A stretch of DNA of 64,000 bases from an uncultured Methanosarcinaceae archaeon. Its GTDB lineage: Archaea > Halobacteriota > Methanosarcinia > Methanosarcinales > Methanosarcinaceae. The stretch spans positions 218,738 through 282,737 of the forward strand of contig CAVRJG010000039.1 of the NCBI GenBank assembly GCA_963721455.1, in the 5' to 3' direction. The translations under genes and the position numbers were made by a program. Below the pieces are notes generated by a model. The model did not search any database and was not told the DNA's origin. It was given only the letters and a program-made list of their open reading frames with translations. Shown in pieces: positions 9,985-50,745 of this stretch (the stretch's first letter is position 1; every line of letters starts with the position of its first letter).

Positions 9985-10233
9985 TTAAAAAAGTGCAACA
10001 ACTTTGAAAAGAATGATTGCACCAAAGGAAAATAGCAGTGGAATAATTCCCATATTCAAAGAAACTTTCACGGCATTTTCCCAGTGCTTCGACACCGGGA
10101 GAAAGTCCCTGAGCAAAAGCAGCAAAAGTAGAGTTGCGGTGGCCACGGATGCACCTTCAGGGATCCCTGGTACGGCCATACTTGAGAGCGCACCTGAAGA
10201 AACTGAATTAGATGAAATTAAACTTGTAAGCGT
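9985..10233 (-). CDS. small Ser-rich two-TM micro-protein, copy 1
   Basis: Homologous to 42014-42277 and 43081-43329 (PG[IL]PE, HW..SLNM[GA]I.PL.F.F..I..FK); frame open to an ACG at 10233, 8 nt after GAGGAG; first ATG is at 10179. Confidence 0.75.
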   Translation of the reverse strand, partial: TLTSLISSNSVSSGALSSMAVPGIPEGASVATATLLLLLLLRDFLPVSKHWENAVKVSLNMGIIPLLFSFGAIILFKVVALF

Positions 10234-10771
10234 AGTTAGAACTCCTCGAGTTGATTCGCATATTTAAGAAACAAATACGCAATCTAATATAAAAATTCTC
10301 CTCATACTACTTGAATAATTTGAGGAGAAAAAGTATCGAACCAAAAGTTTGGAGGAAAAGCGGAAAACGGGCCAATAGATCCTAAAATGTTGAGAGTTTT
10401 ATTAGTATGAAAATTAAAACGCTGAGGATCCGTAATTGCAAGAGCATTTGAAAGCCTGAAAAAAGGGCATACTTCCAGATTTAACCGGGGGCCCGATTTT
10501 CCCAGATAGTCTAAGCCAGAGGAAAGATTAGATTCAAACGATTGTAGAAAATTCACCTGATTTTTAGCCGAGATAAAAACATGCTTCTGGTTTGAGCAAT
10601 GGAAGATTTATGTTTATTGATTTTCGGTACGAGATGTAATTATACAAGATGTAAATATAATAATATTGAAAATCAAAGACTGGAGACTGTAATGCAAAAT
10701 TACGAATGAAAAAGAGAAGGCATGGATTAAAGAACTTTACCAGAAAACGTAAAACAAACGAGGGGCAGGGA

Positions 10772-10831
10772 AATAAACCAAATCACTTAAATAATTACAA
10801 AGTGTATTCAACTAAAAAATTAAGATAGTTA
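10772..10831 (+). promoter_or_regulatory. conserved ~60-bp promoter element, copy 1
   Basis: aataaaccaaatcacttaaataatt...gtgtattcaactaaaaaattaagatagtta closely matches 19837-19894; contains a BRE/TATA-like cttaaata. Confidence 0.7.
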
Positions 10832-11023
10832 CGGACGTCAATGGGAGTGTACATCGGGAAAAATAAATCGCAATCGCTATGGGGTTTACCTCGAGCGTAT
10901 AGATTAGCCCTATCATTGGAAACGTGAAAAACCGAAAGCTATGTAAAGAGTGACCAGGGATTTTCATGCTCCAACAGAAAGAGCACCGGGTCAATTAAAA
11001 AAACCAGATAAACGGGGGAAACA

Positions 11024-11692
11024 ATGAACTCGACTGAATTTAAAATCCACAATTCTTCTAAAATATACGGCACCTCTGTAATCGGGAAAGACACAGTAAT
11101 ACTGGAAAATGTGATTCTGGGGTATCCTGAACACAAGATTCTGATGGAAATCCTGAAACAAAATATCGAAATTGAAGATTTTGAGTTCTCAGGCTGTTCC
11201 ATAGGCCCGAATTCGATTATAAGGGCCGGATCAACGATATTTTCCAACGTAAAAACCGGAAAAAACTTCAAAACCGGACATAATGTAATGATCAGAGAAA
11301 ATACGGAAATCGGAAACAATGTCCTCATCGGAACCAATGTCATTATAGATGGGCATGTGAAGATCGGAAATAATGTAAGCATCCAGGGCAATGTTTACAT
11401 TCCAACCAATGTTATTATCGAAGACAATGTATTTATCGGGCCCTGTGCTGTTTTGGCTAATGATAAATATCCTATTCGAAAGAAATACGAATTGAAAGGC
11501 CCCGTATTGAGAAAAGGTGCATCCATAGGTGCAAACGCCACCCTGCTTCCGGATGTGGAAATCGGGGAAGGGGCAATGGTTGCCGGGGGAGCGCTTGTGA
11601 CAAAAAGCGTGCCCGCCTGGAAGCTTGCAGTCGGAGTGCCTGCCAGTATCAGAGAACTTCCAAAAGATTTAAAGGAATTGAATCAAATATAA
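11024..11692 (+). CDS. hexapeptide-repeat sugar N-acetyltransferase (WbpD/WlbB-like)
   Basis: Left-handed beta-helix repeats, NDKYP and GASIGANATLLP motifs. Confidence 0.88.
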   Translation: MNSTEFKIHNSSKIYGTSVIGKDTVILENVILGYPEHKILMEILKQNIEIEDFEFSGCSIGPNSIIRAGSTIFSNVKTGKNFKTGHNVMIRENTEIGNNVLIGTNVIIDGHVKIGNNVSIQGNVYIPTNVIIEDNVFIGPCAVLANDKYPIRKKYELKGPVLRKGASIGANATLLPDVEIGEGAMVAGGALVTKSVPAWKLAVGVPASIRELPKDLKELNQI

Positions 11693-11758
11693 ACTTATCA
11701 AAAAACCAAAATTAAGTCGGATAAAGTTTTATTGAGATTATTAAAAAGAGGTCCGAAA

Positions 11759-12841
11759 ATGATCCCAATTGCCAAGCCCCTGCTGGGTAAGGAAGAGATT
11801 GACGCAGTATCGGAGGTCCTGAATTCAGGCATGATTGCCCAGGGCCCGAAAGTAGAAGAATTCGAGCTAGCTTTTTCCGAGTACACAGGTTGTGAGTACG
11901 CAGCCGCTGTAAACTCTGGCACTGCGGCCCTGCACATTGCGCTTCTTGCCCATGGAATAGGAAAAGAAGACGAAGTGATTACAACTCCCTTCAGCTTCAT
12001 TGCAACAGCAAATAGCATCCTTTATACCGGGGCAAAACCTGTTTTTGCAGATATCGAGCCAGATACATATAATATAGATCCTGAAAGAATTCAGGAAAAA
12101 ATCACTTCAAAAACCAGAGCCATTATGCCTGTCCACCTCTACGGACACCCTGCAGACATGAAAGCCATAATGGAAATTGCAGATGATAATAAGCTTGTTT
12201 TGATCGAAGATGCCTGCCAGTCCCATGGCGCAGAATTCCTTGGACGAAGGGTAGGAAGCTTCGGAACAGGGGCTTTCAGCTTTTACCCGACAAAAAACAT
12301 GACGACCAGCGAAGGCGGAATGCTCACTACAGACGAAAAAGAAATTGCAGAAAAGGCAAAAATGATCAGGGCTCACGGCTCAAAAGTCCGTTACCTGCAC
12401 GAAATGCTGGGTTTCAATCTGCGCATGACTGATATTGAGGCTGCAATCGGGCTTGTCCAGCTTGGAAAACTGGATAGATTTACAGCAGCCAGGCAGGAAA
12501 ACGCAGGAATACTTTCAGCAGGGTTAAAAGGCATATCCGGAATTGTGCCTGCAGAGACAAAAGCCGGCTGTACCCACGTATTCCACCAGTATACGGTCAG
12601 GGCTGAAAAGAGGGATCAACTGGCAGCTTTCCTGAAGGAAAAAGAAATAGGAACAGGAGTCCACTATCCGATACCTATTCACAAGCAACCCGTTTACAGG
12701 GAACTTGGATACAACGATTCCCTGCCTATTTCGGAAAAAGCAGCAGAAGAGGTCCTCTCCCTCCCTGTACACCCCGCATTATCCAGAACCGACTTACAGG
12801 AAATAGTCGAAGCAACCAAAGAATTTTATGCAAAGGATTGA
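11759..12841 (+). CDS. DegT/DnrJ/EryC1/StrS sugar aminotransferase (WbpE-like)
   Basis: [17 protein letters not shown] and [14 protein letters not shown] (PLP lysine) motifs. Confidence 0.93.
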
Positions 12842-12886
12842 GTAATTTTCCAGCCAATGCATTTTCAGAACCAGGAAGTGAGACTT

Positions 12887-13825
12887 TTGATAAGAGTAGG
12901 AGTAATAGGTACAGGTGCCATGGGACAGAACCACGTAAGGATTTACAGTGAAATGGAAGGCGTGGAACTTGTCGGGATCTCGGATGTAGACCAGAAACGC
13001 GTCGAAGCCATGGCTACGCAGTTCAAGACAAAAGCCTTTACAGATTATAATAAGATGTTTGCTGAAGGGCTTGATGCGGTAAGTGTTGTTGTGCCCACTA
13101 AGCTGCATATGCAGGTCGTACTCGATGCCCTTGATGCGGGAATACATGTCCTTGTGGAAAAACCTATTGCAGATACGACTGAAAACGCTGACCTGATGAT
13201 CGCAGCCGCAAAAAACGCGGGGAAAATCCTTATGGTAGGGCATATCGAGCGTTTTAACCCCGCAGTCATAAAGCTCAAAGAAATTATAAACTCAGGCACT
13301 TTGGGAAAGATAGTTTCAATCTCGACCAAACGAGTGGGCCCTTATAACCCGAGGATCAGGGATGTGGGAGTAATCCTGGATATTGGTGTCCATGACATAG
13401 ATGTGATCTCATACCTTTACGGCAAGAAAATAAATAGTGTCTATGCTATTGCAGGTGCAGATATTCATTCATTTGAAGACCATGCCTCAATAATCCTGCG
13501 TATGGACCATAACTTTGCAGGAGTTGTGGAAACAAACTGGCTGACTCCCCATAAAGTAAGGCAGTTGACAGCGATCGGAGTTAAAGGTGTTGCATATCTT
13601 GATTATATTAATCAGACAGTTCAGCTTCATGACAACGAATGGATAAGAAAAGCCAAGGTGGAACCAAGCGAACCCCTGAAAAACGAACTCGCCTATTTCA
13701 TAGATTGTGCTGCAACCGGCAAAGCCCCCAACCCCTGCGGAGAAGATGGAAAACATGCCCTTGAAGTGGCAATGGCAGCCATAAAATCCTACGAAGAAGA
13801 AAGATTAATTGAAGTAGGAAAATAA
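12887..13825 (+). CDS. Gfo/Idh/MocA oxidoreductase, UDP-GlcNAc(A) 3-dehydrogenase (WbpB/GnnA-like)
   Basis: GVIGTGAMG, VEKP, GHIERFNP and DIGVHDID motifs; TTG start. Confidence 0.88.
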   Translation: MIRVGVIGTGAMGQNHVRIYSEMEGVELVGISDVDQKRVEAMATQFKTKAFTDYNKMFAEGLDAVSVVVPTKLHMQVVLDALDAGIHVLVEKPIADTTENADLMIAAAKNAGKILMVGHIERFNPAVIKLKEIINSGTLGKIVSISTKRVGPYNPRIRDVGVILDIGVHDIDVISYLYGKKINSVYAIAGADIHSFEDHASIILRMDHNFAGVVETNWLTPHKVRQLTAIGVKGVAYLDYINQTVQLHDNEWIRKAKVEPSEPLKNELAYFIDCAATGKAPNPCGEDGKHALEVAMAAIKSYEEERLIEVGK

Positions 13826-13905
13826 GCTGGAAAAAGTTTTGAGAAAGTAGAATCCCGAAATTTTCGGAACAAAACATATCTGAAAAAAATTAAAAAGTGA
13901 TAAAT

Positions 13906-15333
13906 ATGAGTAAATTGGAAAAACTTCTCAAGGAAAGAGGCCCTATAAAAAAAATTGGAGTACTTGGAATGGGCTACGTAGGTATCCCTGCGGCTGTCCT
14001 TTTTGCAGATGCCCCTTGTTTTAATAAGGTTCTCGGCTTCCAGCGCAATTCGGAAAGTTCAAGTTACAAAATCGATATGCTCAACCGCGGAGAGAGCCCT
14101 CTCAAAGGAGAAGAGCCAGGCCTCGAAGACCTTATTGGCAAAGTTGTGAAAGCCGGCAAGTTCGAGTGCACTCCCGATTTCTCAAGGATATCAGAACTTG
14201 ATGCAGTCACCCTTGCAATCCAAACTCCTTTTGCAAATCCCAAAGATCTGGAGCCTGATTTTTCCGCACTCATTGAAGGCATCAGGAATGTAGGGAAATA
14301 CCTCAGGCCAGGCATGCTTGTAGTACTCGAGTCCACAATCACCCCTGGCACGACCGAAGGCATGGCAAAACAAATTCTTGAAGAAGAGTCCGGCCTGAAA
14401 GCAGGAAAAGACTTTGCCCTTGCCCATGCCCCTGAAAGGGTAATGGTAGGCAGGCTTTTGAAAAACATCAGAGAACATGACAGGATAGTGGGCGGCATTA
14501 ATGAGGCAAGTACCCGACGGGCTGTTGAGCTATACTCTCCTGTACTGACTGTCGGAAAAGTAATTCCTATGAGTGCAACTGCAGCCGAGGTCACGAAAAC
14601 TGCAGAAAATACTTTCCGCGACCTTCAGATTGCAGCAATCAACCAGCTTGCCCTTTATTGCGAAGCCATGGGAATAAACGTGTATGATGTAAGGACAGGC
14701 GTGGACAGTTTAAAAGGAGAAGGCATTACAAGAGCTATACTCTGGCCAGGGGCAGGGGTCGGAGGACACTGTCTTACCAAGGACACATACCACCTGGAAA
14801 GAGGGGTTAAGATCGGAAGCGGGCAGCTGGATTATCCGGAAGGTGCAGATTCGATCTACGTGCTTGCACGAAAAGTCAATGATTTCATGCCTGTACACAT
14901 GTATAACCTGACTGTTGCAGCCCTTGAAAGAATTGGAAAGGAGATGAAAGGCTCAAAGGTTGCGATGCTCGGCTGGGCTTTCATCCGGGACTCGGACGAT
15001 GCCAGGAACACGCCTTCGGAACCTTACAGGGACCTCTGCCTGAAAGCCGGTGCGACAGTTACGGTGCACGACCCTTATGTTTTGAAATATCCAGGGGTTG
15101 AGATTTCGGATGATCTTGAAAAGGTTGTCAGGGACGCGGATGTTGTGGTGGTTCTTGCAGGGCACAGTGCGTACTTTAATGTAAGGGCCGACTGGGTAAA
15201 GGAAGTAACAGGTAAAGCAAATCCGGTTATTGTGGATGGAAGAAACGTAGTTGAACCGGATGAGTTTATTGGCAAGGGGTTTGTCTATAAGGGGATTGGG
15301 AGGGGAGATAAGAACAAACATGTAATAGTATGA
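13906..15333 (+). CDS. UDP-N-acetylhexosamine 6-dehydrogenase (WbpA/WecC family)
   Basis: GMGYVG, LESTITPGTT, PER, KTAEN, GVGGHC and DDARNTP motifs. Confidence 0.92.
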   Translation: MSKLEKLLKERGPIKKIGVLGMGYVGIPAAVLFADAPCFNKVLGFQRNSESSSYKIDMLNRGESPLKGEEPGLEDLIGKVVKAGKFECTPDFSRISELDAVTLAIQTPFANPKDLEPDFSALIEGIRNVGKYLRPGMLVVLESTITPGTTEGMAKQILEEESGLKAGKDFALAHAPERVMVGRLLKNIREHDRIVGGINEASTRRAVELYSPVLTVGKVIPMSATAAEVTKTAENTFRDLQIAAINQLALYCEAMGINVYDVRTGVDSLKGEGITRAILWPGAGVGGHCLTKDTYHLERGVKIGSGQLDYPEGADSIYVLARKVNDFMPVHMYNLTVAALERIGKEMKGSKVAMLGWAFIRDSDDARNTPSEPYRDLCLKAGATVTVHDPYVLKYPGVEISDDLEKVVRDADVVVVLAGHSAYFNVRADWVKEVTGKANPVIVDGRNVVEPDEFIGKGFVYKGIGRGDKNKHVIV

Positions 15334-15394
15334 ATATAAACTCTCTTTTGAGAGATTAATTCAGTCTTTCAAATCTGGAAAACGGGCGAAAACC

Positions 15395-16441
15395 ATGATT
15401 GAGAAATTAAAACAAAACGAAGAACTTTGGGATCTTTTTACCAAAAAAGAAGAATACAATTTGACCTTTTCTGACCAGTACGAAAGGTTTCCTTACTATT
15501 TAAGCAGTCAGAGGAATGTTTTTGATCCCAGAGTTTCCAGATTTCTGGTAGAAAACGGGTTACGCCCTGAGTATCCGGACGGAAAGAAATTCGCTGTTTG
15601 CCTTACTCATGATATTGATGTGGTCTATCCGGAAAAACTGTACCCGATCATTGGAACTGCCAAAGCATTTGCTAAAGGGAATTTAACAGATGCTATGAAG
15701 ACTCCTTTTTCCAGAATTAACAAGAAGTGGAATCCGTGCTGGAACTTTAGAGAAATTATGGAGATGGAAGCAAAATATAATGCCAAATCCAGCTTTTATT
15801 TTTTGGCCTTGCGTCCTGGAGAAAAGGATTTCAATTACGAAATTGAGGATCTTGAAGGAGAATTAAAGTTTATATCTGCCCATGGGTGGGAAGTCGGCCT
15901 GCATGGAGGACACGAATCCTACAAGAGCTTAGAGGACATAAAGGAAAAAAAGCAGAGACTTGAAAAGGTTCTCGGCAAAAAAATTATAGGTTACAGGAAT
16001 CATTATTTAAGGTTTAAAGTCCCGGATACATGGGAATTATTAAGCAAAGCAAACTTTAAGTATGATACAACATTCGGGTATGCAGACTGTGCAGGCTTTA
16101 GAAATGGGATGTGCCACCCTTTCAGGCCTTATAATATAAATACCGGAAAACAAATCGATATTCTCGAGCTTCCTCTTACTATTATGGATCGGACTTTACT
16201 AAGAGATTACATGCGGCTTGACGTTAAAAAAGCCTGGGAGCTCATAAAAAACCTTATTGATAAAGTTGAGCAGTACAATGGCGTGATTACAATTCTCTGG
16301 CACAATAATACATCTATCGAGGGAAAGAACCTTAAATATTACGAAAAATTCCTCGAATATGTTTACAGCAAAAAAGCGTGGATTACAAGTGGAGAGGAAA
16401 TCTTTAACTGGTGGTCTAATAACGTCGAAAAGAGACAATGA
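15395..16441 (+). CDS. polysaccharide deacetylase family protein
   Basis: LTHDID, EVGLHG, GYRNHYL, YDTT, GFRNG and ILWH motifs. Confidence 0.85.
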   Translation: MIEKLKQNEELWDLFTKKEEYNLTFSDQYERFPYYLSSQRNVFDPRVSRFLVENGLRPEYPDGKKFAVCLTHDIDVVYPEKLYPIIGTAKAFAKGNLTDAMKTPFSRINKKWNPCWNFREIMEMEAKYNAKSSFYFLALRPGEKDFNYEIEDLEGELKFISAHGWEVGLHGGHESYKSLEDIKEKKQRLEKVLGKKIIGYRNHYLRFKVPDTWELLSKANFKYDTTFGYADCAGFRNGMCHPFRPYNINTGKQIDILELPLTIMDRTLLRDYMRLDVKKAWELIKNLIDKVEQYNGVITILWHNNTSIEGKNLKYYEKFLEYVYSKKAWITSGEEIFNWWSNNVEKRQ

Positions 16442-16617
16442 AAATGTCCACACAATCTGAGAATATCTGACAATTATCAGAACTATTTAAATAAATCAAG
16501 TATTCGTACATAGATGAAACTGCACCAATAAGGACAATAGCGCTAAGTAGCTGTTTAATAAAATTCTTTTGGTTCTTCGCTGTTTTGTAGGGATTGAAAA
16601 TAATTGCTTAGTTAGAA

Positions 16618-16865
16618 CTGACTTTCCGCAGATGTCCGTTTAATTTTCACAATTTTTTCTGCTATCGTTTTTCTGAAAATTGCCCTGCTTATTCAAACAT
16701 GTTTTTTTGAAATGTCTTACACTTTTCAATCTTGTACCTTCATTGAAAGCTTCTAACTTATTTCGGGAAGCTTCAGTTGAGATAATAATTGCAATTTTAG
16801 AGCAAATATCCAAAAACGATAGCAAGAGAGAGGTTATTTTCTTGAGGACATCTGCGGAAGGTCGG
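16618..16865. mobile_element. MITE copy 1 (248 bp), IS1634-like termini
   Basis: TIRs ctgactttccgcagatgtcc / ggacatctgcggaaggtcgg; 6-bp target duplication ttagaa (16612-16617, 16866-16871); near-identical inverted copy at 43589-43838. Confidence 0.92.
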
Positions 16866-17415
16866 TTAGAAAGTAGCCAGGCTAAAAAGAGAAAACTCAA
16901 GCTTGAATGTGATTTCCAACAACAAATGTTTCGAAATTTTAGATATGCTACTTTAATATTTAGGAGATAAATGGAAGTTACCCACTTAAAACAGCGAAGA
17001 GCCATTCTTTTTTTTAATTGTGCAGGCTACTTAAAAGAAGTTAAGACGATTGACCTTGATTTCTGAAAATATTAATTTTTATGAAGTTAACAGTGAATAG
17101 CTGTATAATAACCTGTTCGTTACTGCAATGGCACCCGGCTCGACACCATAAAAAGAGCCCTCCAGTAGAGGGTCATTAAGAAAAACATCCTTATTTCAAC
17201 TTAATTGTGCTGCAAAATGAGGGGAGCAGAGAAGTTTATTCAGAAAGGATTTATCTAGAAGGGATTTTAGAAAGGAGATAAGATAAATACACACATACCA
17301 GCTGGGGAATAAACAACTATGAGGGGTCAATTTTCTTCAAATCGACGAAGTAGTGCATACTGTTGGAGGTCCCTGAAGCCGAACTCAATGCATAATGTAA
17401 GTTAAGGTACTGGCT

Positions 17416-18909
17416 ATGGATGACACAACAGCAGAAGCGACAGAAAACATATCTCAAAATAACAAGAAGGAAAGCTTTGCATTTGATGTACTGACACTTG
17501 CAGGCGGGACAACCTTTGCTCAAATCCTTACAATTCTATCTGCTCCTGTGTTGACCCGCCTGTATGGGCCTGAAGATTTCGGAGTGTGGGCTCTATACAT
17601 TTCTATCACCAGCATTATCAGCGTTATTGCGTGTATGAGGTATGAATATTCCATAATGCTGCCCGAATCGGATGAAGATGCCGTAAATCTGTTAGGGCTG
17701 AGTTTTCTGGCAGTACTTTTCGTAAGCGGTTTAACCCTTCCAATAGTATGGTATTTTAAAGAACCCATAGTTGAGATTCTGAATTCTCAGCAGATAGGAG
17801 ACTATCTCTGGCTCGTGCCTCCATTTATTTTTGCAAATGGGTTATTTCTTGCGCTGAACAACTGGAATTCAAGAACAAAACTTTTCAAAAGGCTTTCCCT
17901 TTCAAGAGTCTTCAGTTCGGTCTCGGCTACTACAACACAGATAGGTTTCGGGCTTGCAGAAAAAGTCGGTGCAGGCGGATTAATAGCTGGAAGTCTTGCC
18001 GGGCAATCTATTGCAACATTTGTGCTTGGAGGGCAGATCTGGAGAGATGATAGGAAGCTGATTGTGAGAAGCCTGCACTGGAAGAAAATCTATGAGGGGT
18101 TTAAGAAGTACCGCAAGTTTTCGCTTATAGATACCTGGGCTGCCCTTATGAACTCAGTCTCCTGGCAGCTTCCTGCCTTTCTTCTTGCGGCTTTCTTCAC
18201 GCCTGCAGTAGTAGGTTTTTACTCTCTTGGCTTTCGCCTTTTACAGCTTCCAATGAGTTTCATTGGAGGTTCGATTTCACAGGTATTCTTTCAGAGGGCA
18301 TCAAGAGCCTTATCCGAGGGCACCCTCCCTTCCCTTGTTGAAAACGTTTTCAGAATGCTTGTGATCATAGGCATGTTTCCGATACTGATCCTGACAATTG
18401 TCGGCAGTGACGTCTTTACAGTCGTTTTCGGAAAAGCCTGGGCAGAAGCAGGCGTTTACGCCCAGATCCTGAGTCTCTGGGCTTTTATATGGTTTATCTC
18501 GTCCCCATTGACCACGATATACGTAGTAGTCGAAAAGCCCCACTTCGGCTTTCACTACAATTTTTTCAACCTGATTACACGTCTTCTTTCACTGATTATA
18601 GGCGGCCTGCTGGGAAGCGCACGTCTGGCACTGATCCTTTTCTCGATCTCAGGAATTCTGGTATACGGTTACCTGTGCCTGAAGATGATGTCCTATTCCG
18701 GAGTAAAAGCTTCAACAGCCCTGAAAATAGTATTCTCCAATTTTATCCTCTTCGTCCCTGCAGGAATTGTGCTTGTTGCCTTCAAAACTGCAGAAATAAA
18801 CCAGACTCTGCTTGTTATCTTTTCAGGCGTGATTATCGGCATTTATTACCTGTATATTTTAAAAACCGATGTACAACTAAAAAAGATAATGAGCGAATTC
18901 CGAGCCTGA
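17416..18909 (+). CDS. Wzx-type oligosaccharide flippase
   Basis: LTRLYGPEDFG and VGFYSLGFRL motifs, many TM helices. Confidence 0.9.
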   Translation: MDDTTAEATENISQNNKKESFAFDVLTLAGGTTFAQILTILSAPVLTRLYGPEDFGVWALYISITSIISVIACMRYEYSIMLPESDEDAVNLLGLSFLAVLFVSGLTLPIVWYFKEPIVEILNSQQIGDYLWLVPPFIFANGLFLALNNWNSRTKLFKRLSLSRVFSSVSATTTQIGFGLAEKVGAGGLIAGSLAGQSIATFVLGGQIWRDDRKLIVRSLHWKKIYEGFKKYRKFSLIDTWAALMNSVSWQLPAFLLAAFFTPAVVGFYSLGFRLLQLPMSFIGGSISQVFFQRASRALSEGTLPSLVENVFRMLVIIGMFPILILTIVGSDVFTVVFGKAWAEAGVYAQILSLWAFIWFISSPLTTIYVVVEKPHFGFHYNFFNLITRLLSLIIGGLLGSARLALILFSISGILVYGYLCLKMMSYSGVKASTALKIVFSNFILFVPAGIVLVAFKTAEINQTLLVIFSGVIIGIYYLYILKTDVQLKKIMSEFRA

Positions 18910-19180
18910 TGAGCTGGCTCAAAAATTCGTTCGTCAAAGAGCCCTTTCTTTCCAGCAATCGCCATCAAGTTTTTTGCTGCAGGAATTATTCGGGTAAGAT
19001 TTTTTTTCAAAGGGCTTTAATGTGGCTCTGGGCATAAAGGGGCCGTGAAACTAGTAAACTGATGAATAGAGTTTTTACCAGTAGAGGTGTAGCTCGACGA
19101 TGCGCGGTCTGTTTCGCTTCGCTCAAGCAGGCTTCTGTAAATACATAGAAGATAAAAACCTGAAAAATCCCGGCCGTGTA

Positions 19181-19336
19181 TCATTCACCAGCTGATAAAC
19201 AACCTTCTTGATGCCATGGACCTTTCCGAACCTTTGCCAAGCATTCAAGAGTGCAGTAAACCGCTTTTTCTTCTGCAGTTTTCAAAACAAAGAACTCATT
19301 ACCACAAATAGGGCAAATTTTTCTCACATATTCCAT
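19181..19336 (-). CDS. 51-aa Cys4 zinc-finger micro-protein (not in the ORF track)
   Basis: Read from sequence: MEYVRKICPICGNEFFVLKTAEEKAVYCTLECLAKVRKGPWHQEGCLSAGE*; GGTGA RBS upstream of the ATG. Confidence 0.7.
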   Translation of the reverse strand: MEYVRKICPICGNEFFVLKTAEEKAVYCTLECLAKVRKGPWHQEGCLSAGE

Positions 19337-19836
19337 AGATAAATCACCATACATAGATTTTTAACAAAGAAACTTGTGTTTATTTGACACACAATCACAT
19401 TAAAATAAGTTAAGAAGTTTTAATATAGGACTGGCCAATAGATAAAAAATTTTTAGGACAGAATCTCCCTGAATCTTTCTACACCATATTTTCTCAACAA
19501 TCACGTCCATCCTAGATCAGAGATTTTGTCAGAGTACTTTCTCAGCCGTTTCAAGCCATTCCCTGTCAGCAACGACCTCTCTTACATCGTAAAGTGTCCT
19601 TACTTCAGGAGCGTGGATGGTTTCCCCAAAAATCAACACGTTTTGCATCTTTTTTCCCTCATTACAGGTTAAAAAGGTAAATTTTTAGCATAATTCCGAA
19701 AATTTTCGATTTGTAAGTGATTTGAGAATGTAATATTTCAGAGTGAAGTTATAAAATTTTTTGTGTAACTAATACAAAAACAGGATTATAATTAAGAAAG
19801 AGAGAATTAAAAAAAGCAAGATAGGGTGGTAATAAG

Positions 19837-19894
19837 AATAAACCAAATAGCTTAAATAATTTAAGGTGTAATTCAATAAAAATTAAGATAGTTA
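19837..19894 (+). promoter_or_regulatory. conserved ~60-bp promoter element, copy 2
   Basis: aataaaccaaatagcttaaataatt...gtgtaattcaataaaaattaagatagtta matches 10772-10831. Confidence 0.7.
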
Positions 19895-20023
19895 AAGGAA
19901 TCTTTAGGGAAAAAAACAGTAAAAAAACAGAAATTTAACCATTTTCGTTACCTTACTTGCATCAGATACAAAATTCAATCAGAAAAATAGTCACCTGAAC
20001 AGAAAATTTTCGGAGAAAAAGTC

Positions 20024-21790: not shown

Positions 21791-21803
21791 AGAGGGATTT
21801 CTT

Positions 21804-22742: not shown

Positions 22743-22829
22743 TAGTAGTTGAATTGCTGGATAAATAAGGAACTCTGGAAAAGCTATTTGCTAAAAATAT
22801 AAAATTTATAGAAAGGTAGTTTTGAGATT

Positions 22830-33737: not shown

Positions 33738-33749
33738 GCCAATACACCA

Positions 33750-38570: not shown

Positions 38571-38911
38571 AAGAAAACTATGAATAAAGTGAGAAGTGTT
38601 GGGTAGGAGAATGACAAACAAGTGGTATGGGATCGAATAGAGATGGGCATAAGAATTGGAGAAAAAATTCTGAATATTCCACATCTTGGCAAAAATAGAG
38701 CGAAAGAATAAAATGCATTAGAAAAATATTTAATCTCCTGAAAGAAACTGGGTCTTGTCCGTGAGTTATTGATCAGTTCTGAAAAAATGAGTACATCCAT
38801 CATGTTTGCGGAAAATGAATAGAGATTCTCATGCTTATGGGTTTCAATAACTCACCCCCACGACCAGAAACTGAAAAACATATAATTTTGATTACAAGCT
38901 GGATGACCTGC

Positions 38912-40443: not shown

Positions 40444-41643
40444 ATGCAAAAAATAATTAATTTCCACAGAAGGCGAAAAAAACTGAATTTTCTGATCATC
40501 GCATCAGTTCTTATTATGGCTCTACTGGCAATTTCTCCTGAAACCGCATCCTGTGGTAACCTGGGGTTTTCCTCTTCTCAAGAGACGGGGCCTACTACGG
40601 AGCAGATACCTGCCAGGGTCCTGGAAGAAGCAGGAAATGTCGGAGTTACTTTAACCTTATATGAAAATATGGGGCTCTTCAAAAAATTTGGAATATATAT
40701 AGATAGATATATGCTTGGGGGAATGGGGGCAGCAGTTCTGGTCCTTCTCGTATATTCACGCGTGACTTGGAGAGAGACCACAGTTATAAAGAATCCTCTG
40801 AAAGCTCTATATTCGCTTAAAATCTGGAAAACAGCCAAAACTGAGGAAACAGACAAAGGAAATTCCGAGATCAAAGAACGAAGACTCTTTACTGCAATTC
40901 CGGTCCTGTGCATAGCCTTTGCCGAACTCTTGATCTTTTCGGGAAGAATGGGGGCAGCCGTCTGGGTGCATATTGGAACCCTTATTGCTCTTTCCCTTTC
41001 CAATATATTCATAAAAGACCTCGAAATCCAAAAAATCCACCAGGCACTTATGCTTCTCCCGATCCTGAGACTCATAAACCTTTCAATGCCTATCTTTATT
41101 GAGACTACACTTTATACCTTCATTTTCATCTACGGCACCCTGGCAATTCCAGTGGCGGTTATAATAATCCATCAGCGTCACTCCTTTGAGCAGATAGGAA
41201 TTTCCCTGAAGAATATTGAAGCCTACATGTTCCTTTCGATTCCTCTGGGTTTTCTACTTGGGCTTGGGGAGTACCTGATCATCCAGACCGGGTATCTGAT
41301 CCCTGAACTCACTTTCGGAAATCTGCTTAAACTCACGCTTATCATGGTTTTCTTCGTGGGCCTGGTTGAGGAACTTATTTTCAGAGCAATCCTCCAGACT
41401 AGGCTCGAACAGGCACTCAGTGTGAGAGAGGCCCTGTTAATCACAAGTCTCCTGTTTGGACTCATGCACTCAGGGTACGGCACCTTCTATGAAATTCTTT
41501 ATACCTGCTTTGTGGGATTTGTCATGGGCCTCGCCTTCTACAAAACAAGAAGTCTGCCCTTTGTTGCTGTCCTGCACGGCTTCGTCAATGTTTTCCTTTT
41601 CGGGATTTTCCCCCACTACCTGAGCGACTGGGCAGGGTTCTGA
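40444..41643 (+). CDS. CPBP (type II CAAX/Abi) intramembrane glutamic protease with N-terminal fusion
   Basis: EELIFR, FGLMH and HGFVN motifs; ATG 40444 after AAGGAG; N-terminal ~110 aa resemble both ends of 44166-45137. Confidence 0.9.
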   Translation: MQKIINFHRRRKKLNFLIIASVLIMALLAISPETASCGNLGFSSSQETGPTTEQIPARVLEEAGNVGVTLTLYENMGLFKKFGIYIDRYMLGGMGAAVLVLLVYSRVTWRETTVIKNPLKALYSLKIWKTAKTEETDKGNSEIKERRLFTAIPVLCIAFAELLIFSGRMGAAVWVHIGTLIALSLSNIFIKDLEIQKIHQALMLLPILRLINLSMPIFIETTLYTFIFIYGTLAIPVAVIIIHQRHSFEQIGISLKNIEAYMFLSIPLGFLLGLGEYLIIQTGYLIPELTFGNLLKLTLIMVFFVGLVEELIFRAILQTRLEQALSVREALLITSLLFGLMHSGYGTFYEILYTCFVGFVMGLAFYKTRSLPFVAVLHGFVNVFLFGIFPHYLSDWAGF

Positions 41644-41992: not shown

Positions 41993-42365
41993 AAATGTTC
42001 CGGAAATCCGGAATCACATAACCTCTGCTATCTTATAAAAGACGATCAGCGCAAAGCAGAAAATCAAAGGAAAGATTGCCATATTAAGAGAACTGTTAAG
42101 AGATTTGCTCCAATGTTCAGATGCTGAAAGGACCTCCTTTAAAGAAAGAAGAGCTATGAGCCCAACAACGACTGCAACCCCATACTCAGGAAGACCAGGG
42201 CTTGTAATCATGGAAATTGCACTCGAGGAGATAGCGCTCGAGGAGATAGCACTTGATGAGATAATGCTCAATAGTATAATAATGCCCCCTTACAATATCG
42301 TAGATTTATTCGATTTATCGTAGACTTATTAGAATAAAAGGACTAAATCATATAAAAAACTTTTG
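41993..42365. repeat. ~370-bp direct duplication (with 43060-43416) carrying the micro-protein gene and its promoter
   Basis: Near-identical from aaatgttccggaaatccggaatcac to catataaaaaactttt; differs by one 15-bp SSSAI unit and a few SNPs. Confidence 0.92.
42014..42277 (-). CDS. small Ser-rich two-TM micro-protein, copy 2 (three SSSAI repeats)
   Basis: LLSIISSSAISSSAISSSAISMITSPGLPEYG-TM-KE..HW..SLNMAI-TM; start at ATA 42277 or TTG 42271 after a GGGGG RBS. Confidence 0.8.
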   Translation of the reverse strand: MLLSIISSSAISSSAISSSAISMITSPGLPEYGVAVVVGLIALLSLKEVLSASEHWSKSLNSSLNMAIFPLIFCFALIVFYKIAEVM

Positions 42366-43080: not shown

Positions 43081-43329
43081 TCACATAACCTCTGCTATCT
43101 TATAAAAGACGATCAGCGCAAAGCAGAAAATCAAAGGAAAGATTGCCATATTAAGAGAACTGTTAAGAGATTTGCTCCAATGTTCAGATGCTGAAAGGAC
43201 CTCCTTTAAAGAAAGAAGAGCTATGAGCCCAACAATGACTGCCGCCCCATACTCAGGAAGACCAGGGCTTGTAATCATGGAAATTGCACTCGAAGAGATA
43301 GCACTTGATGAGATAATGCTCAATAGTAT
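43081..43329 (-). CDS. small Ser-rich two-TM micro-protein, copy 3 (two SSSAI repeats)
   Basis: Nearly identical to copy 2; start at ATA 43329 or TTG 43323. Confidence 0.8.
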   Translation of the reverse strand: MLLSIISSSAISSSAISMITSPGLPEYGAAVIVGLIALLSLKEVLSASEHWSKSLNSSLNMAIFPLIFCFALIVFYKIAEVM

Positions 43330-43838: not shown

Positions 43839-44165
43839 AAACATCCAATCATTTTACTAAAACAATTATTAAAAATGTGAAGACGCACAAATAAAAAATA
43901 ATTTCAGGGGCTTAAGAAAATTCAGAGATTAGCAACAGCCACAAAATAGGTCCAAATCTCAACAATATACATAAATTTACAGATATAATGCCCTAAAAGC
44001 CAGAAACTATCAATAAAAATTTATAGAATGACCATAGTAAAAGTTTACATAATATCGGGTAAACAGGATATTTCAGCGTAGTTTACTCTCTAAAAAATCT
44101 GATTGAAATAATTAAAATACGATATAAAAAATTAGATAAAATCTAATTTGAAAAGGAGCGACTCC

Positions 44166-45137
44166 GTGCACAAATTAATTAGTCTCCGTAAGAAAAGAAA
44201 AGAACTGGCTTTTATGGTCACCTCCCTTTCGATTCTGGTTTTACTGGCAATTTCTCCTGCAGCCGCATCTGTTAACAACTGGGAGTTTTCCCCTCAAGAA
44301 CCTGTTTCTGGGGACACCCTTAGCATAAAAGGGGGTGCATCTCCGCAGGAGGAAATCGATGTGTTCGTGACCTTTGAAAAAACGGTTCCTGTCTCTGGGG
44401 GAGAGTTTGAATATATTCTTGAAGACGTAAAAATCCCTGGAGGTTTAAATAATCTCTTTAAGGTTGAGGCAAGGGGAGCCAAAAACCTCAACGTGAGGGT
44501 AAAAATGATCCTCTGGGTAACAAAAAGCTCAGAGGTTTCAGGGGATGTTGTAACCGTATCTCAGTCAAGTGTCCCTCCAGGAACCTACATAATAAAAATC
44601 GACGGGCATGCTAAAGAAGGAGCTTCAAACGTGAACCTGAAGATTACAGCTTTTCAGGGGATAGAAGCTGATTCGAACGGAGATTTCAGTTACTCCTATA
44701 ATACAAAAGCTGTTCCTTCGGGAGACTTTGAAATAAAAGTGGGGAGTGTAGCAAAAAAGGTAACTATTCAGCCTGAGGAAACCTCAGACTCAACTTCAGA
44801 CTCAACTTCAGCAAGTTCGTCTTCAGCAAGTTCGTCTTCAGCAAGTTCGTCTTCAGCAAAGACAGAATTTTCCCCATCAGCAGAAACTGAGACTTCTCTT
44901 TCGCCAGAGACTGCGCCTTCTCTGGAACCAACAGCTTCCGAAACTCCGAAAGAAAATAATGATTCTGAAGTATTGACTCCAGACAAAAATCTCGAAGAAA
45001 GGAACATTCAGGCACAGCCCTCCGAAAAAGACACACGAAAATCCGGATTTCTCCGGCTATTTGTAGACGAGTTCTATCTGCTGGCAGGAGTGGGAACAGC
45101 AATTCTGATTCTGATTATATATTCAAGAAGGAAGTGA
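44166..45137 (+). CDS. secreted cell-surface protein: signal peptide, beta-rich domain, Ser/Thr/Pro linker, C-terminal TM with basic tail
   Basis: Basic n-region plus LLAISPAAA signal; SASSSSASSSSASSSSA linker; YLLAGVGTAILILIIYSRRK terminus; GTG start after AAGGAG. Confidence 0.85.
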   Translation: MHKLISLRKKRKELAFMVTSLSILVLLAISPAAASVNNWEFSPQEPVSGDTLSIKGGASPQEEIDVFVTFEKTVPVSGGEFEYILEDVKIPGGLNNLFKVEARGAKNLNVRVKMILWVTKSSEVSGDVVTVSQSSVPPGTYIIKIDGHAKEGASNVNLKITAFQGIEADSNGDFSYSYNTKAVPSGDFEIKVGSVAKKVTIQPEETSDSTSDSTSASSSSASSSSASSSSAKTEFSPSAETETSLSPETAPSLEPTASETPKENNDSEVLTPDKNLEERNIQAQPSEKDTRKSGFLRLFVDEFYLLAGVGTAILILIIYSRRK

Positions 45138-45234: not shown

Positions 45235-47441
45235 ATGTATTTGAAGAAAAGTTTACTGATAATTGCATTAACTGTATTTATATTAACTTCTGCAACAGCA
45301 ATTGCAGGCAACAACGAAAAAGATGTAAGCCCTATTGGTAGTATAAACTTTACCGATAGGGCTGTTTATGTTCTGGACCATACCAGCGACCCGGAAGAAG
45401 GAAATTGGATTACAATGGGATACACGTATGAAGGAAGAATGATCCAACTCCCCAAGCCGATAAAGCTCACATACTCAGGCCCTAAATTTAAAGAATATGG
45501 AGGAGCTTCCGGAACACTCTACAAAGACGAAAATGAAAGTTACACAATAACTTACCCATCAAGTTCTTTTTACCTCACCCATCCCGTCTACCTGCCTGGG
45601 GAGAAAGTGAACATGTCTTTCCATGGGGATTCCTCTCTAAAAGGAACTGTGGATATCTATCTTTTCAACATCACCTCAGACTCCGCGTACGGAATTTTTG
45701 ATTCCTTCAAGGCAGGAGATGTAGGAAACTTAGACAGCCTCTTTCACAGCAACATAGACGGGAATTATAAAAAATACTCTGCTGTTCTGGGAAAGGATGG
45801 CGATTTATTAAATTACGATTTTGGACCGCTCGATGCAGGACAGTACTGTATAGTAATGATCCAGGAAAATGAAGACAACAGCCTGACAGTCCTTTCTGCA
45901 ACAGCCTTTGTAGTTGAGAAATACGAACTACACGTTTCAGCTCCTGCAAGCATAGTAAAAGGGGAAGACCTGGATATAAGTATGGCACTTGAGAGTGCCC
46001 CAAATGAAAGTAACTGCACGTATGGGGCTGTGCTAATCAGGGAGAAGGCATATAAAGCGAACATAGAAATCAACTCTGATGGCACCAGGAATGGCACTTC
46101 AGTAATAGTAAACGAAGTAGACCTTATTGATGAATTTGACATCAATTCCTCAAATTACAGGTCAAAACTTACCAGAGACGAACTCCAGACAGAAATCCAG
46201 ACCATAATAGGAGAAGGCAAAGGCTCCATAGCAATAGGAGAAAAAGGCCAGAAGAAGCTGTCACTTACAGCTTTTGACCTGCCTCCAGGCTCCTATTACC
46301 TCCTTGCGGGAGCATACAGCCCGGGAAAAGGGCTAGTCGGGCTTACCCAGCTTGAGGTGGAAATTAAGTCAAAGGGTGGCTCAGACGATGACTCTGGAGG
46401 AGACAACGGATCTGACGACAATGGATCTGATGAACAATGGATCTGATGAAAATGGATCTGATGAAAATGGATCTGATGAAAATGGATGTGATGACAACGG
46501 ATCTGATGACAACGGATCTGATGACAACGGATCTGATGACAACGGATCTGATGACAACGGATCTGATGACAATGGATCTGATGACAATGGATCTGGATGA
46601 CAATGGATCTGATGACAATGGATCTGATGACGATGACTCTAGAGAAGACGATAACTCCGGCAGCGGAGGAAACGGAGGAAACGGAGGAAGCGGAGGAGCA
46701 GGAGGATCTCCTGAACCTGCTAAAAATGTCAAGTCAAAAGAGCTCTCCCAGCAGTTCATTTCAAACGGCAAACAGATAAGTTTCAAGTTTATACAGGAAG
46801 CAACTTCTGTCGAATATGTGGGATTCAATGCCAAAAAGACTGCCGGAAAAATTACAACTATTGTCGAGGAGCTTAAAGAGAAGTCTTCACTGGCACTTTC
46901 CGAACCTGAAGGTGAAGTCTACAAATACATAAATGTCTGGATAGGAAATGGGGGCTTTGCAAACCCCAATAACTTTGAGAATGCCGTTGTAGGGTTCAGA
47001 GTAAACAAAGAGTGGATCACAGGAAATCATATTAATGCTGACTTGATAGTCCTCCAGCATTTCAACGGGAACGATTGGGATGCTCTTCCTACAAAAAAAT
47101 TGAGCGAAAATGAAGAATATATTTATTTTGAGTCTGAAACTCCCAGTTTTTCTCCGTTTGCAATCACGGCCGGAAAGAATGTAATGGTGACAGAGGAGAA
47201 AACAGGAGAAAACCAGGTACCTTCTGAGGCAATGCCAAATGACGAAACCGGGACAACCACTGAGACTGGCGCTGCTTCCCAGGAAAATAAAAACACGGAG
47301 ATTCTAAAAATTGCCCGTTTCTTTGTAGGGTTCCTTATAGTCCTCCTTATGGGCGCGATTATAATTAAGAAAACGGGACCTGAGCAAGAGGAACCTGAAA
47401 AAAGGGACATGAGCAATAAAAAGGGATATTCTAAAAGATAA
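45235..47441 (+). pseudogene. TIGR04279-type extracellular domain plus PGF-pre-PGF domain surface protein, interrupted by two +1 insertions in a repeat linker
   Basis: Signal peptide and DHT..PEEGNWI domain (45235-); GGAGGSPEPAKNV...ETPSFSPFAIT domain with TM in another frame (-47441); extra bases at ~46433 and ~46595. Confidence 0.75.
46402..46632 (+). repeat. 15-bp tandem repeat (gatgacaacggatct)n encoding DDNGS/DENGS
   Basis: About 15 units, two of them 16 bp long. Confidence 0.95.
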
Positions 47442-48531: not shown

Positions 48532-48979
48532 GCTTGCAGAAAAGGGAAAAGTACAAAATAAAATTTTCTATGCATACCCAGAGATTTCTGAGATTGAGCT
48601 AAAACTTTTCCGGAATATTCGGAAAATGGCTCAGGCTGTAAAAAGCTTTTCAAAAGAGGGGAAAATTTTTCATACAAAGAAGCCTTACTAATGAAGGGGA
48701 GTCAAAAAAATTGGGAAATTAAGGGTATTTCTCAGAAAACAGAGAACCTGATAAAAGAGAGTATGTCATACTCGAAATTGGAATTTTGGAACCGAGAATG
48801 GCAACATTCGACACTGATTTAAAAATGTAAAAGTGATTTCCCCTTATTTTCCTGCAACAGGACCACCTGAAAGGATAAGCCTGGCGTGGAAAAAATGCAA
48901 AAAAGCGGGTTGATGGAAGGCTTACATAAGTATAAATTCAAATAAGACAGAGTATAAAAAAATTTTATTTGTGGTAAAA

Positions 48980-49867
48980 ATGGCCGGAAATAGACAACTT
49001 CCTCTGGACCTGTTGCTTGTTGCAGGTTTTGTTCTTCTTACTGACGTCCTTGTACTTGTGCCTGTACTTAATGGCAGTTTCCTGCGCACAGGCTTGGGCA
49101 TTATTCTAGTGCTCTTCTTGCCAGGCTATGCCCTAACTGGAGCTGTCTTTCCGGCAAAAAAAGATATTAACGGAATTGAGAGAGTTGCAATCTCCTTCGG
49201 ACTGAGTATTGCAGTCGTCCCGATAATGGGACTTGGCCTGAACTATACTACCTGGGGGATCAGGGAGATTCCTGTGCTAACGGTGCTTTCGGTTTTTACT
49301 CTCTTGACATGCGCAGTTGCGTACTACAGAAGAAGGCTGCTGCCTGAAGCCGAAGCTTATGGAGTTTCACTCAAAGCGTTTTTCCTGAGCATGAAGACCG
49401 AAATTCTTGAAAAGCCCGAATCAAAAACCGATAAAATTTTTGCACTCCTCCTGATTCTTTCTATCCTGGCCTCTATGGGCAGCCTTGCCTACATAATAGG
49501 AAACCCTAAAGAAGGAGAGCATTTTACCGAATTTTACATTCTTGGAGCTGACAGGACAACCGAAAACTATCCTACAGAATTTGTACAGGGAGAAAAAGGG
49601 ACAGTCAGTGTAGGGATCGTAAACCATGAATATAGGCCCGTAGAGTATACAATGGAAGTAAGGCTTGAAAACAATTCTCTGCCTCTCCCGGAAAGTCAGA
49701 GACAGGTAAGCCTTGAGCATAATATGTCCTGGGAAGAGCCGATTACTTTTACGCCGTCTTTAGAAGGAAAGAATATGAAGCTAGAGTTTCTGCTATTTAA
49801 TGAAACCGAAAAAACCGTGCCTTACAGAAACCTGCATCTCTGGATTAATGTTACTGAGGAGGCCTGA
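48980..49867 (+). CDS. DUF1616 membrane protein
   Basis: LFLPGY, IERVAISFGLSIAVVP, GEHFTEFYILG and PYRNLHLWI motifs. Confidence 0.85.
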   Translation: MAGNRQLPLDLLLVAGFVLLTDVLVLVPVLNGSFLRTGLGIILVLFLPGYALTGAVFPAKKDINGIERVAISFGLSIAVVPIMGLGLNYTTWGIREIPVLTVLSVFTLLTCAVAYYRRRLLPEAEAYGVSLKAFFLSMKTEILEKPESKTDKIFALLLILSILASMGSLAYIIGNPKEGEHFTEFYILGADRTTENYPTEFVQGEKGTVSVGIVNHEYRPVEYTMEVRLENNSLPLPESQRQVSLEHNMSWEEPITFTPSLEGKNMKLEFLLFNETEKTVPYRNLHLWINVTEEA

Positions 49868-49869
49868 AG

Positions 49870-50745
49870 ATGGCAATTCCGGATTTTCCACCTTCAGAAC
49901 TGGAAGCAGGACATGTCTCTTTGCCTGAGCTTGGGAAAATGTTCAAAATGCAAACTGAAGAAAAAACCGGATTCCTGAAAAAGATATTTTATGCAGGAAT
50001 CCCTGTAATTGCAATTACTTTTGCCGAAATGTTGATTTTCGGAGAAAGGTTAAAAGAAGCCTCAATAGTATATACCCTGCTTCTCCTGGTCCTTTCATTT
50101 TCAATAGCAGTTACGAAAAAACATGAGGTACGAAAAGTCTACCAGGCCCTTCTGCTTCTGACAATTTTCCGACTGGTAAACTTTTCAATGCCGATTTTTT
50201 ATGAGAGAAATCTTTATTCGTTCATGTTCATCTATGCACCTCTGGCAATTCCGGCAACAATTGCTACCATTCATCAGAAAGTCATATATGAGAAAAGAAA
50301 AGATACGCTCAGGAAGATATGGATCTATCTTCCTTTCTCTGTCTTTGCAGGCCTTATCTTTGCTGAAGCAGAATATATATTGATAGGGGCCAGAGAACTT
50401 ATTCCGGATCTCTCACCGGAAAACTTGCTGATACTCATAATCACAATGGTGTTTATTGTGGGACTGATAGAGGAACTTATCTTCAGGGCAATCCTCCAGA
50501 CGAGAATGGAAGAGTTCTTAGGGCCAGCTGGGGGGATCTTCCTCGCAAGCCTCCTTTTCGGCGTAATGCACTCCAGCTACGGCACTCCCTACGAAATGGC
50601 ATACAACTTTCTTGTAGGGGGCTATCTCGGATACCTATTTTATAGAACCCGAAGCCTTCCCCTTTTGATAATGATTCATGGCTCGATAAATGTGTTTTTG
50701 TTCGGGATAATCCCGCATGTAGGCCCGGGACTCGGGTTGATATAA
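49870..50745 (+). CDS. CPBP (type II CAAX/Abi) intramembrane glutamic protease
   Basis: EELIFR, FGVMH and HGSIN motifs; starts 2 nt after the DUF1616 stop. Confidence 0.92.
   Translation: MAIPDFPPSELEAGHVSLPELGKMFKMQTEEKTGFLKKIFYAGIPVIAITFAEMLIFGERLKEASIVYTLLLLVLSFSIAVTKKHEVRKVYQALLLLTIFRLVNFSMPIFYERNLYSFMFIYAPLAIPATIATIHQKVIYEKRKDTLRKIWIYLPFSVFAGLIFAEAEYILIGARELIPDLSPENLLILIITMVFIVGLIEELIFRAILQTRMEEFLGPAGGIFLASLLFGVMHSSYGTPYEMAYNFLVGGYLGYLFYRTRSLPLLIMIHGSINVFLFGIIPHVGPGLGLI

Follow-up and report, generated by a model that had tools for sequence, protein, structure and literature searches.

In Bacillus, the intramembrane protease SpoIVFB is found together with an inhibitor of about 87 amino acids (aa) and two transmembrane (TM) helices, BofA, and with a membrane partner, SpoIVFA. 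In bacteriocin loci that encode Abi/CPBP proteins, and likewise for MroQ of Staphylococcus, the CPBP gene adjoins genes for small hydrophobic peptides, and in pilins of the VirB2/TraA/CedA1 type a leader precedes a helical hairpin whose loop is basic. CPBP proteases are among the commonest prokaryotic membrane proteases still without known clients, and no function is known for DUF1616 proteins. Within the CPBP group, the myxosortases (MrtX, MrtC, MrtP, MrtJ, MrtS, and the archaeal MrtA) are glutamic intramembrane proteases that process C-terminal sorting signals, according to two reports (10.1101/2023.06.07.544157; PMC11980579). Here, we analyze a stretch of 64,000 nucleotides (nt), hereafter the window, from an uncultured Methanosarcinaceae archaeon (assembly GCA_963721455.1, contig CAVRJG010000039.1, positions 218,738 to 282,737), in which three genes for small Ser-rich membrane proteins, here called micro-proteins, share a locus with DUF1616 and CPBP genes. 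The micro-proteins are an undescribed, translated family of small membrane proteins and, with DUF1616 and CPBP, the third member of a conserved, undescribed cell-envelope module. They represent a new small-protein family within a new variant of the CPBP-centered envelope modules; no published description of the module was found in the literature searched, and preprint supplements may hold more.

The module shares with the myxosortases the protease superfamily and its catalytic motifs, a candidate dedicated membrane client whose short motif precedes a TM helix and a basic residue, and the way in which the link was found, by genomic association. However, its CPBPs score only 25.4, 24.1, and 23.5 bits against the Mrt_core model NF040914 (cut-off, 100) and fall far under the cut-offs of MrtJ, MrtS, MrtP, MrtC, and MrtX. 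The candidate signal of the micro-protein is also not C-terminal, since a loop and another TM helix come after it; no Cys occurs among the invariant or near-invariant columns of 43 micro-protein sequences; the putative cargo is a Ser/Thr tail of 22 to 80 aa; and DUF1616 is an additional partner. The ArtA/PGF-CTERM system (and the PEF- and PEP-CTERM systems) resembles the module in the succession of motif, TM helix, and basic residue and in its setting at the archaeal cell surface, with PGF-CTERM and PGF-pre-PGF proteins encoded nearby. In contrast, its enzyme family is unrelated, and the micro-proteins gave no match to PGF-CTERM (PF18204) at E <= 10. SpoIVFB, BofA, and SpoIVFA form a three-part cast of similar sizes and topologies, but SpoIVFB is a site-2 metalloprotease, no sequence or Pfam similarity was found, and synthesis of the micro-protein exceeds that of the protease. 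The Abi and MroQ loci also place a CPBP beside a small hydrophobic peptide gene, whereas the peptide here is the product of a conserved core gene, with two TM helices and no export leader. The VirB2/TraA/CedA1 pilins have the same leader, hairpin, and basic loop. Nevertheless, the pilin-like filament subunit that the original prediction had proposed gained no support here: a search of the PDB with Foldseek, using a micro-protein model with a predicted local distance difference test (pLDDT) score of 66.7, gave 0 matches, and the window's module contains no assembly or secretion ATPase and no VirB-like genes.

Conserved linkage of micro-protein, CPBP, and DUF1616 genes

A Pfam scan of the 37 open reading frames (ORFs) between positions 8419 and 51897 of the window confirmed the two predicted DUF1616-to-CPBP gene pairs (39007-39855/40426-41643 and 48971-49867/49870-50745). 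Module A comprises, on the forward strand, a DUF1616 membrane protein gene (38831..39855; PF07760 match at 39007-39855, E 2.9e-100) and the gene of a long CPBP (Rce1-like) intramembrane protease (40426..41643; PF02517, E 3.5e-19), which is convergent with micro-protein copy 2. The second pair, without an adjacent micro-protein gene, consists of a DUF1616 gene (48971..49867, forward strand; PF07760, E 3e-96) and a short CPBP protease gene (49870..50745, forward strand; PF02517, E 1.2e-20) whose ATG lies two bases past the DUF1616 stop codon. The order that recurs across genomes is DUF1616, CPBP, and an opposing micro-protein gene, often with a C-terminally anchored surface protein as a fourth member. 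The arrangement is nearly always convergent, the micro-protein gene facing the 3' end of the CPBP gene, with one to three micro-protein genes per CPBP; orphan micro-protein copies also occur.

This linkage greatly exceeds chance. In five complete Methanosarcina genomes, which hold 34 PF02517 matches in about 21.6 Mb, 18 of the 28 micro-protein matches lie within 2 kb of a PF02517 match, where about 0.2 would be expected, and 20 lie within 4 kb; DUF1616 is directly upstream of most of these micro-protein-linked CPBPs. Five genomes from five other genera gave a similar picture, with 8 of 13 micro-protein matches no more than 2 kb from a CPBP. When loci were picked by the micro-protein alone, a CPBP was present in 13/17, DUF1616 in 12/17, and a surface protein of the type encoded at window position 44148 in 11/17, and the four loci lacking a CPBP are short contigs of one genus. 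Loci L040 to L062, chosen with knowledge of the linkage, were left out of these counts. A motif scan of species-representative genomes yielded 42 named loci from Methanohalophilus, Methanolobus, Methanomethylovorans, Methanococcoides, ANME-2, and metagenome-assembled genomes (MAGs); within 5 kb of the micro-protein gene, CPBP was found in 31, DUF1616 in 23, and the 44148-type surface protein in 21 of them.

At the genome level, a family profile built from five paralogs matched 138 of 201 Methanosarcinales genomes and 20 of the 28 genera of the order. DUF1616 was present in 134 of the 138 positive genomes; the four with the micro-protein only are all incomplete, 27 genomes carry DUF1616 only, and 36 carry neither. 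In one genus, six genomes lack the micro-protein (five assemblies of one or two contigs and one of 20), and their DUF1616 matches are all weak (E 1e-29 to 1e-62). The predicted co-occurrence and synteny of the micro-protein with this CPBP subfamily and DUF1616 thus hold across many genera (134/201 genomes; 31/42 loci), and the data establish a functional link among the three.

The micro-protein family

Copies 2 (42014..42271, reverse strand; 85 aa from TTG) and 3 (43081..43323, reverse strand; 80 aa from TTG) are near-identical, copy 3 being a tandem duplicate within a duplicated segment of about 390 to 440 nt at 93% identity. Their tails carry (SSSAI)x3 and (SSSAI)x2, respectively, encoded by a 15-nt tandem repeat of 3.0 and 2.0 copies; in copy 2, the tail precedes PGLPEYG and two TM helices. 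Copy 1 (9985..10251, reverse strand), which has PGIPE and is of a second type, here called module B, has an ATG-initiated ORF of just 64 aa (9985-10179), and its in-frame Ser-rich stretch extends upstream to about position 10251 without ATG, GTG, or TTG. The three paralogous genes of about 80 to 87 aa that had been predicted are therefore all present, with the qualification that copy 1 falls short of that length from its ATG. All three share, as had also been noted, PG[LI]PE, a K/R after the first TM helix (TM1), the HW...SLNM loop, and the second TM helix (TM2). Copy-1-type orthologs adjoin DUF1616-CPBP in other genomes (L041, L044, L048, L051, L053). The window's own genome gave six profile matches, corresponding to the three window copies, two more full copies, and one fragment.

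The family is not due to chance, since the profile finds mostly stop-free copies in all 59 of 59 Methanosarcina genomes, at 1 to 7 matches each. Among the best 120 of 379 database relatives, lengths are mostly 82, 87, or 92 aa, and every source name is "hypothetical protein." No Pfam or NCBIfam model covers the family, and four of the paralogs searched against Pfam at E <= 10 matched no family, BofA and PGF-CTERM included, in a search whose HMMER filters may drop weak matches.

The body of the protein is much better conserved than the tail. Its main features are a juxtamembrane motif just before TM1, S-M-x-T-x-x-G-L-P-[EQ]-Y-G, and a basic loop between TM1 and TM2, KE.LSAS..W.K...SLNM, that is predicted to be cytoplasmic. 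The mean number of K/R residues is 2.4 for the loop and 0.2 for the C-terminal tail, and the Ser/Thr-rich tail has almost none, a distribution that predicts both termini to be outside the cell. A 450-aa relative (P0235), in which a signal peptide and TPR repeats stand ahead of the same motif and two TM helices, agrees with the tail-outside orientation. In an AlphaFold2 (AF2) model of copy 2, which is of modest confidence, residues 1-28 form a disordered tail and the remainder a helical hairpin.

Serine makes up 40% of the N-terminal tail, which contains a charged residue in only 3 of 110 cases and changes its length in whole 5-residue units. Tail lengths range from 22 to 80 aa; tails are Thr/Ala-rich in other genera, reach about 80 aa in two MAG contigs, and are poly-Thr in another family of the phylum. 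In three ortholog sets, variable sites at codon positions 1, 2, and 3 of the tail number 7/10/18, 12/7/22, and 13/7/20, a third-position bias like that of the body, and it follows that the tail is read in this frame. To judge from these substitution patterns, the Ser/Thr-rich tail is under codon-level constraint.

Most homologs begin with M-L-L-S or M-L-T-S. The first codon is GTG, ATA, or ATT in some homologs, window copies 2 and 3 among them, with TTG two codons on. Nearly all homologs have an internal Met directly ahead of x-T-x-P-G-L-P; it is replaced in 4 of the best 120 of the 379 relatives. The module-B type (copy 1, at 9985-10330, and orthologs L041, L044, L048, L051, and L053) lacks any ATG, GTG, or TTG ahead of its conserved Ser-rich tail; two species are without the internal ATG as well, and the tail still varies at third positions. 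About 55 to 60 nt upstream, this type has a conserved AGGAGG and, after it, a TTTATAT box; an out-of-frame ATG comes about 30 nt later, and initiation may be noncanonical or leaderless.

Two further loci were found in the window's genome. A fragment comprising only the loop and TM2 (genome G000, contig C64, 62909-63025) is probably a pseudogene. At the start of contig C66 (1-3216), a second long CPBP gene and a convergent micro-protein gene are separated by an inserted IS605 TnpB gene, with a truncated TnpB gene beyond.

Translation and transcription

Published Ribo-seq data for Methanosarcina mazei Go1 agree with the prediction that the micro-proteins are translated, as entries in supplementary tables 6 and 12 of PMC11456600 report translation of the micro-protein genes MM_1187 and MM_1188. 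In that source, the genes follow the order MM_1185 (DUF1616), MM_1186 (CPBP), MM_1187 and MM_1188 (micro-proteins, on the other strand), and MM_1189 (surface protein), which is the order seen in the window. The tabulated footprint base means are 1265 (MM_1187) and 194 (MM_1188), each over 198 nt, and 263 over 936 nt (MM_1186); the per-nucleotide footprint densities of the two micro-protein genes are therefore about 23 and 3.5 times that of the CPBP gene. In one metatranscriptome run, contigs covered parts of micro-protein copies 2 and 3 and none covered the CPBP gene; these are contig data sharing a small proportion of words and give a weak hint only. Three search terms returned no entry for the family in the proteomics supplement of PMC12704099.

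DUF1616, CPBP, and surface protein partners

Both DUF1616 proteins are full-length PF07760 matches (335.8 and 322.7 bits; cut-off, 31.6), and both CPBPs score above the PF02517 gathering threshold (69.3 and 74.0 bits; cut-off, 22.4). The module A DUF1616 gene is frameshifted, with its N terminus in the frame of 38831-39064 and one TGA inside the Pfam match; this split may reflect a pseudogene or an error in the 73-contig draft. The motifs EExxxR, FxxxH, and HxxxN are present in both window CPBPs, and in an alignment of 42 CPBP sequences E315, E316, and R320 never vary, and conservation is 90% or more at H348, H384, and N388. On the strength of these residues, the CPBP is predicted to be a catalytically intact glutamic intramembrane protease of the CPBP/Rce1 type.

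CPBPs of 400 to 430 aa (window 40426-40800; L046, L047) carry an N-terminal extension in which a short outer segment links a signal peptide to a TM anchor. The extension shows homology to the two ends of the 44148-type surface protein, its signal peptide and its C-terminal anchor, and gives the impression of a client-like anchor fused to the protease. The surface protein gene itself (44148..45137, forward strand), the recurrent fourth member and the counterpart of MM_1189, encodes a secreted protein that combines a Ser-rich linker with a TM anchor and basic tail at its C terminus. A sorting signal shared between the micro-proteins and the C-terminal anchors of the surface proteins was considered and rejected (hhalign probability, 0.3).

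The AF2 model of the DUF1616 protein encoded at 48971..49867 has seven helices and a C-terminal immunoglobulin (Ig)-like sandwich. DUF1616 is predicted to be a polytopic membrane protein whose Ig-like domain faces outside. In fold searches, residues 183-298 matched only generic Ig-like/CARDB sandwiches and the TM part matched no fold, while PDB sequence searches gave nothing useful and a protein atlas search returned unnamed clusters only. Haloferax HVO_2173, a DUF1616 protein, is listed as an N-glycoprotein in the sole paper found with that term.

In Methanolobus (L068-L071, L102-L112), the surface protein gene sits between the CPBP and micro-protein genes. The start of its anchor, K-[LI]-P-[ED]-[LI]-G, recalls the micro-protein G-L-P-E-Y-G; this is a lead only, and a profile comparison with the Methanosarcina anchors gave no relation. 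Two more surface protein genes follow in the window (45235..47441, forward strand), one with a TIGR04279 and one with a PGF-pre-PGF domain by NCBIfam, and belong to the context only. A 15-nt unit repeated 15.5 times (46402-46635) spans their overlap and gives the PGF-pre-PGF gene product an (MDLMK/TTDLM)n N terminus.

Possible roles of the micro-protein

The best reading of these data, to which we give a probability of about 40%, is that the micro-protein is a dedicated client, that is, a substrate, of the DUF1616-CPBP pair; both binding and cleavage are inferred. An abundant client would insert with its Ser/Thr-rich tail outside, and cleavage by the CPBP would fall within or close to the conserved motif, on the outer side of TM1, where it would either free a Ser/Thr-rich peptide or mature the hairpin. 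We favor this reading because micro-protein translation exceeds that of the protease, because tandem arrays and orphan copies exist, because the conserved motif lies at the outer edge of TM1, and because the external tail is variable and replaceable by a larger domain. The module supplies an archaeal CPBP with a candidate client or partner in the genetically tractable Methanosarcina (MM_1185-MM_1189 of M. mazei), and it may bear on how Methanosarcinales build or decorate their surface, which is relevant to aggregation and partner contact.

Several observations weigh against a dedicated client. No CPBP occurs within 5 kb in 11 of the 42 named loci, with contig ends cutting three of these, and the convergent orientation means that the genes are not co-transcribed. 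DUF1616 is found without the micro-protein in 27 of 201 genomes, and some DUF1616-CPBP pairs, such as that at 48971-50745, have no micro-protein gene. The genomes compared are related to one another and hence not independent, which makes the synteny and co-occurrence figures look stronger than they are; a Fisher value computed for the co-occurrence is given no weight for this reason. The anchored surface protein, another plausible client, adjoins the module, and long CPBPs carry a copy of its anchor. Finally, the database protein P0225 fuses a CPBP to the micro-protein body without the Ser-rich tail and without the Asn of HxxxN, which is a better fit to a subunit than to a cleaved client. This type of fusion was not found in 284 genomes of the order and may be rare or an artefact, and a search for longer fused forms of the micro-protein found none.

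There is a second possibility, unlikely but deserving serious attention, in which the micro-protein is an accessory or regulatory subunit of the DUF1616-CPBP complex that gates the processing of other clients and is itself uncut, as BofA acts with SpoIVFA on SpoIVFB. Synteny and co-occurrence fit a subunit equally well, a natural tail-less fusion and a body conserved far above the tail also speak for it, and SpoIVFB/BofA/SpoIVFA would offer an analogy with the same cast: a protease, a mini-protein of two TM helices, and a membrane protein that has an outer domain. On the other hand, a footprint density of about 3.5 to 23 times that of the protease in the published tables, and tandem arrays with up to three micro-proteins per CPBP, are not what a subunit would lead one to expect; a Ser/Thr tail of 22 to 80 aa has no obvious use to a regulator, and no Pfam family, BofA included, was matched at E <= 10. 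We consider it less probable still that the true client is the neighboring anchored surface protein, sorted in the manner of myxosortase or archaeosortase clients, with the micro-protein as a helper or passenger. CPBP-type sorting proteases are established (10.1101/2023.06.07.544157; PMC11980579), the 44148-type protein lies within 5 kb at 21/42 named loci and at 11/17 loci chosen by the micro-protein, its C termini form a conserved domain of motif, TM helix, and basic residues, and the long CPBPs bear the homologous signal peptide and anchor at their N termini. However, the anchors vary by genus and some are PGF-CTERM-like, pointing to an archaeosortase; they have no invariant Cys; the CPBPs are far under every Mrt cut-off; and the gene is missing from about half of the loci, whereas the micro-protein is the constant partner.

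Two further explanations concern the tail and the peptide as a whole. The tail, which is uncharged, Ser/Thr-rich, and variable (poly-Thr or about 80 aa in some lineages) and is predicted to lie outside with the N terminus, could, as originally proposed, be the O-glycosylated part of a membrane-anchored core peptide on which a surface polysaccharide is carried or primed, and which the CPBP then releases or sorts. Window copies 1, 2, and 3 and a fifth paralog do lie in or beside glycan loci, but glycan loci are not the general setting, no glycosyltransferase recurs as a constant neighbor, and the family extends well past the one genus known to make methanochondroitin. We hold this role to be improbable. 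We regard as very improbable a membrane-active peptide, bacteriocin-like or a type I toxin, with the CPBP as an Abi-type immunity or processing protein. Small size, hydrophobicity, tandem copies, the adjoining CPBP/Abi-family protein, and a convergent layout that recalls some type I toxin loci would suit it. Against this stand a core gene present in 59/59 genomes of the genus with a strongly conserved body, the constitutive high-level translation indicated by the tabulated Ribo-seq data, and the lack of a double-glycine leader in the sequences and of an ABC exporter among the 37 ORFs scanned at 8419-51897.

A more novel reading is conceivable, although we hold it to be a long shot. The motif and the two TM helices would then be a new membrane sorting or anchor domain read by DUF1616-CPBP, and a variable, usually Ser/Thr-rich and mucin-like cargo would be O-glycosylated and then released or passed to the envelope. 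This would amount to a proteoglycan-like or peptide-display system of archaea, and apparently also of Chloroflexi, without a described counterpart.

Range beyond the order

At the level of the phylum, the profile matched 57 of 301 genomes, and outside the order a CPBP lies within 1.5 kb at 3 of 11 loci. A representative sequence library gave 440 micro-protein relatives at E <= 1e-3, and the source labels of the distant branch include Chloroflexota bacterium, Methanobacterium, and Halobacteriota. The Chloroflexota-labeled protein occurs on 71 metagenome contigs, of which 33 have at least 1.5 kb downstream; 16 of these 33 carry a convergent CPBP within 2.5 kb. The presence of poly-Thr-tailed relatives beside CPBPs on diverse metagenome contigs suggests that the principle extends past Methanosarcinales.

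Glycan context of the window

Upstream of module A, Pfam matches delimit a glycan biosynthesis island (8419..36889), considered as context only, with a deacetylase, many sugar-nucleotide enzymes, glycosyltransferase (GT) genes of the GT4 and GT2 families, an insertion sequence (IS) element, and a low-GC core. The predicted two flippases (17416-18909 and 22830-24311) and GT2 genes (34809-35852 and 35918-36889) were borne out, and three GT4 genes are present. The label GT-C-like, given to two membrane proteins, is weakly founded: it goes back to one protein of 594 aa (25859-27643), which has a subthreshold DUF6541 match (23.1 bits; cut-off, 29) and for which a PDB sequence search found no GT-C. 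No DUF2206 match was seen for the genes proposed to be DUF2206-like. DUF1616 was tried as a relative of the 594-aa protein and showed no relation (hhalign probability, 0.2).

The proposed tie of the micro-proteins to an exopolysaccharide or methanochondroitin locus did not generalize. In a scan of 84 of the 182 ORFs collected outside Methanosarcina, the module neighbors are mixed, ranging from giant PGF-CTERM proteins and YdjM genes to some sugar genes and to housekeeping genes such as those for adenylosuccinate synthetase and ribosomal protein S19e; housekeeping, YdjM, or giant PGF-CTERM neighbors are as frequent as sugar genes in these other genera. DUF1616, CPBP, and in many cases the surface protein are the partners that stay constant, and the glycan genes do not. 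Methanochondroitin is not known from outside Methanosarcina, and the module occurs in genera not known to make it.

Three minor observations concern the surroundings of the module. The IS element (24441-25528; rve integrase and helix-turn-helix ORFs) is at the edge of a low-GC stretch (29-36%; 24000-32000) that holds the GT4 genes and the 594-aa protein, and this part of the island looks like a swapped-in cassette. The roughly 1.9 kb between the island and the module (36890-38800) contain short, poorly conserved ORFs only and are possibly degraded sequence. In Methanohalophilus, Methanomethylovorans, and Methanococcoides (L080, L087, L101, L118), genes of the YdjM inner-membrane family recur beside the module or an orphan micro-protein gene.

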